Assembly (NCBI GenBank): GCA_965237965.1
Contig: CBDEGT010000002.1
Span: 77,496 to 141,495, forward strand
Direction of reading: 5' to 3'
From: Longimicrobiales bacterium
GTDB taxonomy: Bacteria > Gemmatimonadota > Gemmatimonadetes > Longimicrobiales > Gaopeijiaceae
Length of the DNA stretch: 64,000 nucleotides
Under the pieces are notes generated by a model. The model was not told the DNA's origin, searched no databases, and saw only the letters and a program-made list of their open reading frames with translations. The position numbers and the translations under genes were made by a program. Below, piece by piece: positions 11,005 through 23,560 of this stretch (positions are counted from its first letter, which is position 1; each line of letters starts with the position of its first letter).

Positions 11005-12453
11005 TCATCTTGGTTGCTCTTTTCCGATCTTCTGATGCTCGTCCAAGCCGCCTGGCATTACAGGCTCCGACCCGCCGTAGGCAAGCAACTCGAGAAGCGA
11101 CAGCGCGGCCAACCGCCCACTGTCATCGCCCATGCCTGGAAATCCCAGCACCGGCTCCACAAGCTCTATCACCGCATCGCGGTCCGGAAATCGTCCCAGA
11201 TCGCCGGCGTCGCCGTAGCTCGGGAAGTACTGTCTCAGCAGGCCGTTGGTGTTTTCGTTCATGCCCCGCTGCCACGGGCTATGCGGGTCGCAGAAGTAGA
11301 CGGCCAGGCCCGTGTCGATGCGGAGCTGCGCGTGCTGAGCCATCTCCGCTCCCTGGTCCCATGTCAGAGACCGGCGGAGTTGCTCTGGTAGGGTCGTGAT
11401 CGACGAAGCGATCGCGTCCCGGACGGCCTCGGCACCGTGCCCAGCCAGCGCTGGACCGTTCTTGGTCCTGGGTTCGCCGTGGCGTTTCGCGCGGGGGAGG
11501 TGGAGCAGCATCGTGAACCGGGAGGTCCGCTCGACCAGCGTTCCGATCGCGGAACTTCCCAGTCCGAGGATCAAGTCGCCTTCCCAGTGCCCGGGAACGG
11601 CCCGGTCATCTGCCTCCACGGGACGTTCGCTGATCAGGATCTCCGGGCGAACGAACTTCTTGCCCCGTCCGCGGGTGCGAGCTCTCGGCACACGGAGCGC
11701 ACGCCCGCTCCGAAGGCACGCCGTAAGTTCCCGACGCAGCGCACCGCGTCCCTGAACATAGAGCGCCTGGTAAATGGCCTCGTGCGATATTCGCATTGAC
11801 TCATCATCCGGGAAGTCGACACGCAGCCGGTTCGCGATCTGTGCCGGACTCCACGAGGCCGCCCACCGCCGCTCTTGCCGGCGACCGTGACGCCGTCCGA
11901 TCCAACGCACTTCTGGGCCCGCCACAGCCGCGCCCTCAGGGGCCGCGATCACGCCTCCAAGACGATCCTGTACATACCGCCTCAGCTCGCCGTTCGCAGC
12001 AAGCTTGGCGACTTTCGGGCGCCTCGCTCGCCCATCAGCGTGCCATTGGGCGGTCGTGGCTCGGTACTCCAGATAGCCGCTTCGGGTTGCCGCGTTCCGC
12101 CGCAGTTCTCGCGAGATCGTCGATGGTGACCGGTTCAACTGCCGGGCGATCTCGCGCACTCCGCGACCACCAGCGTGAAGGAGGGCGATCTCTTCGCGCT
12201 CGACAAACGACAAATAGCGCCGAGAAAGGGGACGCAGAGTAAAGGATGGCATTCCACCATACTCGCGGAACCAGCGTGTTCCGACAGCGGGAGACAGGCC
12301 GACCGCAATTGCCGCCTCCTCGCTCGACAATCCGCGAGCGATTCCCTCCCAGAAACGCTGCCGGTGCTCCCGGCGCCCCAACGGGGGACGACCGGGTGAA
12401 CGCATCGGCGGACGTAGTGCACGATCCGCTCTTCGGTGCCTGCTTGCCCCCAT
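11005..12453 (-). pseudogene. IS30 family transposase, copy 1; 3' end (~50 codons) replaced by IS110-like remnant
   Basis: ..[11 protein letters not shown].. IS30 DDE motif. Matches copy 19740..21104 up to ..LRQYFP, then diverges into unrelated sequence. Confidence 0.75.
11030..11200 (+). mobile_element. IS110-family transposase 3'-end remnant (~170 bp) fused to truncated IS30 copy 1
   Basis: Encodes ..AHAWKSQHRLHKLYHRIAVRKS.. About 90% nucleotide identity to 35922..36080, where the frame continues ..VAVARELVGFMW.. (IS110 C-terminal signature). Confidence 0.5.
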
Positions 12454-12495
12454 CGCAACTCCTCCCTCTCGAGGTGTTGCGACGACCGCTTGAAC
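11222..12495 (-). mobile_element. IS30-family element copy 1 (left IR TTCAAGCGGTCGTCGCAACACCTC present; right end deleted)
   Basis: Left IR at 12484..12495 on the reverse strand. Inserted in IS3 orfB after ..HHSDRGGQ. Confidence 0.65.
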
Positions 12496-12502
12496 CTGGG
12501 TT

Positions 12503-21310: not shown

Positions 21311-21625
21311 ACCACCCAATACCTCTCTATACGGTATACGGAGCGGCTGGCTGACGCGGGCATCGAGCCGTCCGTGGGAAGCAAAGGAGATTCCTACGAC
21401 AACGCGTTGGCCGAATCGATCATCGGCCTGTTCAAGACGGAGATGATCCGACGGAACGGGCCCTGGCGTAACCTGGAAGACGTCGAATTCGCCACGCTCG
21501 AGTGGGTCTGGTGGTTCAATCACCACCGTCTGCTCGAACCCATTGGGTACGTTCCCCCAGTGGAGAGGGAGCAGGAGTATTACCGGAACCTGAGCGCCCC
21601 GGCCAGGCTGGTGGCACTCAACTAA
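21311..21625 (+). pseudogene. IS3 orfB C-terminal part (integrase core C-terminus) displaced by the IS30 insertion
   Basis: ..SVGSKGDSYDNALAESIIGLFKTE..WWFNHHRLLEPIGYVPPVEREQEY is the conserved IS3 orfB C-terminus. Confidence 0.7.
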
Positions 21626-23560
21626 ACAAGTCTCCGGAGAAGCCGGGGCGATTCACGTTGACGCTGTAACGCTCTCGCCCTTCCACGGTCCGGGTGACGT
21701 TCATGCCACCCACCGCGGTCATGATCGTCTTCTGGACGTCGGCCATGCTGAGCCCGTAACGGGCCGCCGCCTGCCGGTCCACATCCACCTCTACGTACTT
21801 CCCTCCGATGGCTCGCTCGGCGAAGACGGAGGCCGTACCCTCCACCATGGGGAGGAGGCCCTCGATCTCTTTGCCGATCGCTTCGAGTGTGGCGAGATCT
21901 GGGCCGAAGAGCTTGATGCCGACCGGGGTCTTCAGATCAGGAGACGGTGCCTGAGCATGAAGCCCAGGGTCGGGCGGTAGAACCTCAGCGCCGCTCGGTT
22001 GATCGGGTTCTCCTCCTCCGACCTGATCTTCCCCCGGATGAACGCCCCCATCGCCACCGGCACAAGCGTGATGGCCAGCAGCGCCGACGCGGCCATGGCC
22101 AGAGTCTTGGTCAGCGCCAGGGGCTTGAACAGGCGCCCCTCCTGCGCGACCAGGGAGAAGATGGGTAGGAAGCTCAGCGTAATGATGAGCAGCGAGAGGA
22201 ACAGCGCCGGCCCCACCTCCTTGGACGCATCCAACGAAAGCTGCCAGGAGGAGCGGGTGCCGCCGTCTCGCTCGTTGCGCTCCATGTGCTTGTGCATGTT
22301 TTCGATCATGACGATCGCGCCGTCCACCATGGCCCCGAGCGCGATGGCGATGCCGCCCAGGCTCATGATGTTTGCGTTGACGCCGAGCCAGCGCATGACG
22401 AGGAAGGACATGAGCACGCCCACCGGCAGCGTGACGATGGCGACCAGGGCACTGCGGGCGTGCATGAGGAAGACGATCGCCACCATCGCCACGATCAGGC
22501 TTTCTTCCAAAAGCTTCTCCCTGAGCGTCTCGATGGCGCGGTGGATGAGGTCGCTCCGGTCGTAGCCGACCACGATCTCCACGCCCTCAGGTAGGGAGCG
22601 CTGGATCGCGGCCATCCTCTCCTTGACCCGCTCGATCACCTGGAGGGGATTCTCGCCGAACCGCATGATCACGACCCCGCTGGTCACCTCTCCCTGGCGT
22701 ATGCGCCCGTCCTCTGCTCGCCACGCCAGGTCCGCCATACCCCGCCGGATCTCGGGGCCCACGTGAACGCGGGCCACGTCGCCCACGGTGACGGGCGTGC
22801 CGCCGGGCCCTAATCCAATGGCAACAGACTCCACGTCCTCGATCGAGCCCAGGTAGCCGAGGCCGCGGACCATGTACTCGCTCCCGCCCAGCTCCAGGAC
22901 CCGTCCGCCCACATCCAGGTTCGATTCGCGGAGCGCTCTCAGGACCCGGGAGAGCGGGATCTCGTATGCCAGCAGCCGCTCCGGCTCGAGTTCCACTTGG
23001 TACTGCTTCTCGAGCCCGCCCAAGGTCGCGACCTCGCTCACCCCCGGGACCGCGGTGAGCTGATAGCGCACGTACCAGTCCTGGAGGCTCCGGAGCTCCG
23101 CGTTGTCGAGCTTCCCGCTCCGGTCCAGCAGGACGTACTGCATGACCCAGCCGACCCCCGTCGCGTCGGGGCCGAGCTGCGGCTGCACCTCCTCAGGTAC
23201 CTTGTCGCCGATCCCGTTCAGGTACTCGAGCACGCGGGAGCGTGCCCAGTACAGGTCCACGTCGTCCTCGAACACCACGTACACGAAGGAGCGCCCGAAC
23301 TGGCTAATGCCCCGCACGTACTTCGTGCTCGGAACCTTGAGCAGCTCCGTCGAGAGCGGATAGGTGACCTGGTCTTCGACGACCTGGGGCGCCTGCCCCC
23401 TCCATTCCGTCTGCACGATGACCTGTACATCGGAAAGGTCGGGGATGGCGTCCACCGGGGTCGTGAGCATCGCCCAGCCACCGAAGCCCACGATCGCCAC
23501 GGTACCCAGAACGACGAAGAACTTGTTGTCGAAGGACCACTCGATGATGCGCCGCAGCAT
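21618..23560 (-). pseudogene. CusA/CzcA-family RND heavy-metal efflux pump. Only N-terminal half (542 aa) plus a ~75-aa internal fragment in another frame; 3' half removed by IS3 insertion
   Basis: MLRRIIEWSFDNKFFVVLGTVAIVGFGGWAM.. is the CzcA N-terminus. Second fragment ..YVEVDVDRQAAARYGLSMADVQ.. Ends at the IS3 right IR (21655). Confidence 0.75.

Follow-up and report, generated by a model that had tools for sequence, protein, structure and literature searches.

Insertion sequences (IS) of the IS30 family transpose by a copy-out/paste-in route, through an abutted right-end/left-end junction. The hot spot of IS30 in Escherichia coli is 24 bp long, and IS1655 of Neisseria reportedly prefers a palindromic consensus. 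Hot-spot targeting is an established property of the family, the sites chosen being near-palindromic hot spots or the inverted repeats of the elements themselves (PMC9333248). We describe here two nested IS3/IS30 blocks found in a stretch of 64,000 nucleotides from a Longimicrobiales bacterium (Gemmatimonadota; assembly GCA_965237965.1, contig CBDEGT010000002.1, positions 77,496–141,495, forward strand). The whole of this stretch is called the window, all coordinates refer to it, and the loci used for comparison carry L numbers. In both blocks an IS30 element meets an IS3 transposase gene at the same glutamine codon, and hot-spot targeting by IS30 is strongly supported as the cause of this shared junction.

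The IS30 element of E. coli resembles those of the window in its transposase (helix-turn-helix plus DDE, model NF033563), in its short target duplication, in its sequence-specific sites and in the deletions and inversions found around its ends (PMC9333248). It differs by a 2-bp duplication and by a near-palindromic hot spot unrelated to transposase genes, whereas here 3 bp (CAR) are duplicated in a coding motif of another IS family. ISLxc3 and ISLxx5 of Leifsonia xyli and IS1655 also belong to the IS30 family and also have 26-bp inverted repeats; the parts of their accounts available to us mention no link with IS3 genes. The closest published relative is ISLxc3. Its 26-bp repeats, CTTGGGTTCTAACGGTCGTTGCAACA and GGCGGATTCTAGTGGTCGTTGCAACA, are almost the same as those found here, with non-complementary tips lying outside the core, and the NTG duplication noted for it fits CWG on the other strand; however its authors could detect no conserved target (PMC2516522).

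Other systems are comparable in their choice of site. Homing endonuclease genes and inteins sit in conserved active-site codons, so that their target is kept constant by selection and recurs across distant hosts. Here the process is transposition, with neither endonuclease nor splicing, and the host gene is destroyed. IS4321 and IS5075, of the IS110/IS1111 family, insert in the inverted repeats of Tn21-family transposons, a safe landing site in mobile DNA. ISPpu9 is likewise reported to use a conserved feature of repeated DNA, the REP sequences, as a safe landing site (bioRxiv 10.1101/2025.01.17.633520). The transposases of these elements are DEDD-type, RNA-guided or site-specific in some other way, and their targets are non-coding repeats; in our case a DDE element of the IS30 family enters a coding catalytic motif.

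The two nested blocks

Families were assigned by profile search with Pfam and NCBIfam (NF) models and their cut-offs. In the outer element orfA has an HTH_Tnp_1 domain and orfB has HTH_21 and rve, with rve_3 in its right part; it scores 179 bits on the IS3 model NF033516 (cut-off 160). The two inner elements, which we call IS30-A and IS30-B, score 210.8 bits (a fragment) and 253.9 bits on NF033563 (cut-off 80). Both have HTH_38, and their rve matches of 29.2 and 28.2 bits lie under the Pfam cut-off of 32.6. By these tests both inner elements belong to the IS30 family and the outer one to IS3.

Intact reference copies were found elsewhere. An exact look-up of the OrfA protein showed that the same IS3 is present many times in long-read metagenome contigs, one of them of 3.5 Mb. 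The intact element has 1318 bp (L001, L002, L005, L009), ends TGAATCGCC...GGTGATTCA, that is TG...CA, and an OrfB of 305 amino acids. Its target is duplicated over 3 bp: ggg in L001, aac in L002 and ggt in L005. The orfA stop and the orfB start overlap in GTGATGG at 19159–19165 and orfB is in the -1 frame; no slippery heptamer of the A6G type is visible in 19100–19200. Full IS30-A has 1449 bp (L009, L129, L130, L132) and full IS30-B has 1627 bp (L011). Their inverted repeats have 26 bp: a 6-nucleotide tip and a 20-nucleotide core. All 12 complete IS30 copies examined have a 3-bp target duplication; the window copies do not keep both junctions intact.

The first block is on the minus strand. 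IS3 copy 1 (12501–13482) comprises nucleotides 1–982 of the element, with the left inverted repeat, orfA (13112–13432) and the 5' part of orfB. It terminates in the codon CAA (TTG on the plus strand, 12501–12503) and its translation ends in ...HHSDRGGQ. It is followed by IS30-A, truncated at its 3' end (11222–12500), with the core of its left inverted repeat at 12475–12494 and an atypical tip CCCAGG at 12495–12500. This fragment is 99.8–100% identical to the full-length copies in L007–L009 and L128–L133. Its transposase frame starts at 12453 and continues into foreign sequence (open reading frame 11005–12453). As the initial annotation had noted, the 3' end of IS30 and the right part of IS3 are absent from this block.

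The second block is on the plus strand. The left part of IS3 copy 2 (18792–19692, IS3 nucleotides 1–901) is 100% identical to copy 1 and to L001. IS30-B follows at 19693–21316, with 1624 of its 1627 bp and an intact transposase gene (19740–21104); its left tip is cut down to GAA from GGTGAA, its right tip is ACCACC, and a body of 1615 nucleotides is 100% identical to L011 2032–3646. The right part of IS3 (21317–21655, nucleotides 980–1318) starts at CAA (21317–21319), has rve_3 and ends at the right inverted repeat; its translation opens with QYLSIRYTERL. At the IS3/IS30-B left junction 84 nucleotides are gone: IS3 902–982 and the first 3 nucleotides of the IS30-B tip. This block was thought to be complete, which is not the case. 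Nor does its IS30 extend only from 19696 to 21310 with 20-bp repeats starting in TTCAAG, since a further 6-nucleotide tip lies outside them. The first block does keep more of orfB, as had been proposed, although the extra part amounts to 87 nucleotides and not 88: 81 of IS3 (902–982) and the 6-nucleotide tip of IS30-A.

The IS30 element has the same orientation relative to IS3 in both blocks. Comparison of the window with itself gives two pairs of inverted segments. The IS3 pair, 12582–13484 against 18790–19692, covers 903 nucleotides with 100% identity and no mismatch; the IS30 pair, 11222–12494 against 19696–20971, covers 1279 nucleotides with 85.1% identity, 181 mismatches and 8 gap openings. 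The divergence changes exactly at the element boundary, from identical IS3 arms to IS30 arms which differ by 15%. The initial annotation had described a single IS3::IS30 composite present twice in inverted orientation, in homologous blocks of about 2.5 kb. The inverted blocks are real and their IS3 parts are identical, but the IS30 parts are two different elements, and the homology consists of 903 bp at 100% and 1.28 kb at 85%.

Each IS30 type has its own copies elsewhere. IS30-A is present in near-identical form (99.8–100%) at eight places of the 3.5-Mb genome, with fragments in other samples (L001, L006). A 100% copy of IS30-B lies within an IS256-family gene in L011 (2026–3652; ...VVYVWADGIYVK...), with the duplication GAC.

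After the two insertions the blocks decayed in different ways. From copy 1 the 3' end of IS30-A and the right part of IS3 have disappeared, and a short foreign remnant is joined to it at 11222–11226; copy 2 underwent the 84-nucleotide deletion. The flanks of the IS3 ends differ between the two copies, as was first reported, and those of copy 2 are tac and cgt, without a 3-bp duplication. As neither IS3 copy keeps its target duplication, the outer flanks have also been rearranged.

The remnant fused to IS30-A (11038–11221, plus strand) had been called IS110-like. The IS110 affinity is weakly supported; this sequence may derive from the 3' end of a transposase gene of that family. The remnant (189 nucleotides as 11038–11226) has no profile match of its own, but it has a 91% identical paralogue at 35917–36105. 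The longer form of this paralogue (35917–36140) matches positions 301–340 of 343 in the IS110 model NF033542, with E=7e-6 and 25 bits, below the cut-off of 140. Neither the remnant nor the longer paralogue has a Pfam match. The remnant shows no similarity to the IS110 gene of the window (29740–30687, by BLASTP) nor to the IS110 genes in L004 and L006 (by DNA comparison and tblastx). Both copies have their first nucleotide in common (11038, equivalent to 35917), and the second is fused to the 3' end of an open reading frame of 715 amino acids; this shared 5' boundary may indicate a small repeated unit rather than two independent truncations.

The glutamine codon of IS3 orfB as a probable target of IS30

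In the intact IS3 (L001, L002, L004, L005, L009) the empty site reads GGCGGGCAATACCTC. The junction of copy 1 is ...GGCGGGCAA followed by CCCAGG-TTCAAGCGG, and the right junction of copy 2 is ...CCCTTGAA-ACCACC followed by CAATACCTC. Both lie at the CAA of IS3 nucleotides 980–982, the glutamine codon of HHSDRGGQ|YLSIRYTERL. An identical internal position had been claimed for the two IS30 insertions. The claim is right for the left junction of copy 1 against the right junction of copy 2, and for this pairing only; the two junctions are thus not at unrelated positions of IS3. The tip hexamers were also considered as target-derived or spacer sequence. This was ruled out: they are absent from the intact IS3, conserved throughout the family, and part of the published ISLxc3 repeats.

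The target preference of other IS30 copies was looked for, as had been suggested. In the 3.5-Mb genome six of the eight IS30-A copies touch an IS3-family gene. Two of them are clean simple insertions at the CAA of the same IS3, one forward (L132) and one reverse (L130); in both the tips, GGTGGA and GGTGGT, are canonical and CAA is duplicated. Another one (L129, reverse) is a clean insertion in a different IS3-family gene (...LIVHSDQGSQ|YGSDDFQ...), with the duplication CAG. Rearranged IS3::IS30-A junctions at the same site are found in L007, L008 and L128, and in other samples in L001 and L006. L007 and L008, at about 0.65 and 1.97 Mb of the 3.5-Mb contig, have the variant GGGCAG for GGGCAA, show opposite ends of IS30-A and have no matching duplication at the other end; they suggest large IS30-mediated rearrangements of that chromosome.

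We have also scanned one genome per GTDB species, with the inverted-repeat core TTCAAGVGGTCGTYGCAACA as the sole query and no constraint on the flanks. We counted 115 non-redundant ends, each with at least 45 nucleotides of flank. Among the matches listed, this glutamine codon in rve/IS3-type transposase genes is the site of 41 of the 115 ends (36%): in 20 the flank ends in ...[S]D[R]G.Q, and in 21 the flank on the other strand begins with QY[TLV][SA]. There are 10 near misses, and the remaining 64 ends have other flanks. The last three flanking nucleotides are CAA or CAG on the first side and TTG or CTG on the second, which corresponds to a 3-bp duplication of the glutamine codon. The background of the 5'-side motif in the same IS-rich loci is 3.0e-4 per codon, so that about 0.035 ends are expected, against 20 observed.

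The position within the transposase is constant. In the nine flanks tested, all nine end at position 76–77 of the 102 of Pfam rve, and five of them also have HTH_21, the architecture of IS3 OrfB. When the element is taken out with one copy of the duplication, the OrfB frame is again free of interruption in all eight complete cases (L037, L054, L111, L117, L123, L129, L130, L132). Both orientations occur at the codon, forward in L132 and L037 and reverse in L130, L117 and L129. From these flanks the DNA consensus CAY-(TCN/AGY)-GAY-CRN-GGN-NNN-CAR|TAY was drawn; with CGN as its fourth codon it encodes H-S-D-R-G-x-Q|Y. According to the taxon labels of the database records the hosts belong to at least six phyla: Actinomycetota (including Acidimicrobiia and Thermoleophilia), Pseudomonadota (Alpha- and Beta-), Gemmatimonadota, Acidobacteriota, Chloroflexota and Ca. 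Binatia. The interrupted IS3 elements are highly diverse in sequence, whereas the IS30 repeat core is invariant. An old IS3::IS30 composite whose parts diverged together is excluded by the presence of identical IS30-A copies in unrelated IS3 elements. Ends outside IS3 genes still prefer C-W-G as their last three bases, in agreement with the NTG duplication of ISLxc3.

A different group of IS30 ends has the same core with CTTGGG or CTTAGG tips (L013, L021, L033, L035, L039, L049, L057, L069, L084, L104), in Streptomyces and its relatives. Their flanks are GC-rich, often with runs similar to GGGCCCC, and lie outside IS3 genes; several are at contig ends. They may represent a sister clade with a different target.

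From the sequences compared, the two blocks very probably derive from one recently active IS3 of 1318 bp, two copies of which would have been hit independently by IS30-A and IS30-B at one codon, through DNA-sequence targeting. The initial annotation had left a choice between such a hot spot and the transposition of one ancestral composite; the use of the same codon in the same genome and across at least six phyla speaks for the hot spot.

Several observations weigh against this explanation. The scan gave at least 115 loci, a sample rather than a census, and among the matches listed more than half of the ends lie away from IS3 sites. IS30-A is also found in DNA which is not part of an IS (L009, with duplication TAC, and L133), and IS30-B in the IS256-family gene of L011. 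With so many ends elsewhere, the specificity would be a strong preference, or be limited to a sub-lineage, rather than absolute. The case of the IS256-family gene, together with L128, where two IS30-type genes are nested among rve fragments, indicates that insertion into other insertion sequences is not limited to IS3. Finally, in both composites the tip beside the IS3 target belongs to the other IS30 type, which a history of one insertion each leaves unexplained. The left core of IS30-A in the window carries CCCAGG, the right tip of IS30-B in L011, while all other left ends of IS30-A examined have GGTGGA. The right core of IS30-B in the window carries ACCACC, the right tip of IS30-A, while the otherwise identical copy in L011 has CCTGGG. 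Perhaps the site was occupied or converted repeatedly, or a short conversion took place between the ends of co-resident elements. Two other models of the hybrid tips, an intramolecular inversion from a junction of the IS30-B right end with the IS30-A left end and a reciprocal exchange between the two composites, give the wrong order and ends.

The hybrid tips speak for a refinement of the hot-spot model, in which one IS30 type held the site first and the other then replaced or converted its body, the tip being a relic. This could occur by IS30-style targeting of the resident inverted repeat with a short sequence conversion, or by cross-reaction of IS30-A and IS30-B ends, whose cores are almost identical. 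For IS30, insertion at its own inverted repeats has been described, as have the resulting sequence-conversion products (PMC9333248). On the other hand, no A-B tandem or repeat-to-repeat junction was seen at any locus examined; the published targeting joins complete repeats with a 2-bp spacer, without a split between tip and core; and the left junction of copy 2 can also be read as a tip CTCGAA, with IS3 ending at nucleotide 898. We consider such a sequential occupation improbable.

Still less probable, to a degree that leaves it little room, is the transposition as a unit, by the IS3 ends, of one ancestral IS3::IS30 composite, followed by different deletions. It would account for the common orientation of IS30 relative to IS3, for the common IS3 coordinate in both composites, and for the two IS3 inverted repeats kept in copy 2. 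Nevertheless the contrast of 100% identity in IS3 with 85% in IS30, and the separate near-identical copies of each IS30 elsewhere, effectively exclude it; besides, copy 2 has no IS3 target duplication and copy 1 no IS3 right end. An assembly artefact, by which repeated insertion sequences were wrongly joined in a long-read metagenome of low coverage (4.3x for a 51-kb contig, from the contig names), is hardly credible as the origin of the nested structures or of their flanks, even in a region full of such sequences. That 51-kb contig was assembled separately and carries window 7112–23248 at 100%, and junctions of these kinds are found again at many loci, both in other samples and in public genomes independent of them.

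The segment between the blocks and its neighbours

The two IS3 left ends face inwards and enclose a segment of 5.3 kb (13483–18791, minus strand). Profile matches agree with the gene content first given for it, TAXI-TRAP genes, a lipoprotein-like gene and a peroxiredoxin. The genes are a fused TRAP permease (13762–15789, TIGR02123, 613 bits), the TAXI binding protein (15809–16864, TIGR02122, 290 bits), a SnoaL/DUF4440 lipoprotein-like gene (17015–17614, DUF4440) and a 1-Cys peroxiredoxin (18051–18716, AhpC-TSA and 1-cysPrx_C). The GC content is uniform and gives no sign of a foreign origin of the segment. It cannot be described as a composite transposon: copy 1 has no IS3 right end, the left ends face inwards and there is no common duplication.

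A close relative (L134) is 99.8% identical over window 13495–16976 only, with a kinase and a tannase gene upstream and Band_7 downstream. On one side 12 nucleotides separate the limit of the homology from the IS3 left end; on the other this limit is a short repeat similar to a kinase N-terminus. With only this part shared, in a different neighbourhood, the 5.3-kb segment is a mosaic. The locus of a TAXI homologue with 81% identity (L135) also has different neighbours; neither locus provided the empty site or an inverted ancestral state. The named homologues of the TAXI protein, like the related IS30 copies, point to a probable origin of the DNA in the Gemmatimonadota, in a bacterium of Longimicrobiales type.

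The 903-bp perfect inverted IS3 arms are a valid substrate for recombination and could support a RecA-dependent inversion of the segment, as the initial annotation had suggested for the blocks as a whole. In the only other contig examined, that of 51 kb with 4.3x coverage, no inverted isomer is present: its arrangement is identical to window 7112–23248. A past inversion was also considered, but exchange of the inner flanks (gac against tac) gives no 3-bp IS3 duplication with cgt, and no trace supports it.

Beyond the second block lies a cusA/czcA-type RND gene (21656–23560, minus strand; TIGR00914, 612 bits, residues 1–539, and an ACR_tran fragment at profile positions 702–764). IS3 copy 2 cuts it near profile residue 764, and an internal stop or frameshift lies between 21848 and 21932. 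The 3' third which it lacks was looked for in the window and beside the IS3 left ends of the loci compared, and was not found.

The kinase-like repeat occurs in the window at 803–888, 16904–16976, 17740–17896, 28143–28225, 32573–32709, 33501–33686 and 43855–43933, with lengths of 55–160 nucleotides and 84–96% identity. It encodes the N-terminus of a Ser/Thr kinase, and the TAXI and SnoaL genes have orphan copies immediately upstream. As the homology with L134 ends exactly at one of its copies, these repeats look like boundaries of shuffled gene cassettes.

Other insertion sequences are present in the window. There are four IS5-family copies, at 2177–3192, 25555–26762, 26762–27777 and 28479–29686 (NF033581, 320–328 bits). 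Two types, 78% related, meet head-to-tail at 26762. At a distance of 1.7 kb beyond there is an inverted copy with 100% identity, another arrangement prone to inversion. The IS110-family gene at 29740–30687 lies beside this cluster. It has an open reading frame of 315 amino acids and scores 193 bits on NF033542 (profile positions 41–343 of 343); its sequence is unrelated to the remnant.

Proposed mechanism and meaning

On its own the window feature is ordinary: an IS-rich region in which some elements are nested and decayed. The cause of the coinciding junctions is more interesting. We propose that this IS30 lineage picks its target by DNA sequence, namely the glutamine codon CAR of H-S-D-R-G-x-Q|Y, around the second catalytic Asp of IS3/rve transposases. 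The target would probably be read by the N-terminal helix-turn-helix region of the transposase, as has been proposed for the hot-spot targeting of E. coli IS30. The insertions found at this codon duplicate its 3 bp, occur in either orientation and split orfB, by which that IS3 copy is inactivated; the split falls between the region of the second catalytic Asp and the C-terminal part of the DDE domain. Being catalytically essential, the motif presumably could not mutate away and would be present across very diverse IS3-family elements. Other insertion sequences would offer a landing site harmless to the host, and IS30 might travel elsewhere within an IS3 shell whose two ends are intact.

The lineage is large: thousands of transposases are found at E<=1e-100, and the best 120 are at least 81% identical. 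A more general view, which we put forward tentatively and at somewhat less than even chances, is that this widespread lineage may be a dedicated parasite of other insertion sequences. It would recognize the HSDRGxQ|Y DNA, held constant by selection on the victim enzyme, and would gain a harmless landing site and possibly a vehicle, while it knocks out IS3 copies. A target made of the catalytic-motif codons of another IS family, used across phyla, appears to be new. We found no description of IS30 elements targeting IS3 genes in the literature searched; curated IS databases were outside that search, so it may have been known earlier.

Recurrent nested composites are thus unsafe evidence for movement as a unit. 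If the targeting is confirmed, it would represent a new sequence-defined target class for DDE transposases, and would explain many of the pseudogenes annotated as split IS3 transposases. The target-selection module could then be of use for directing integration. It would also be a case of one mobile element parasitising another and able to limit the expansion of IS3: the load of insertion sequences in genomes would be shaped in part by elements which target each other.

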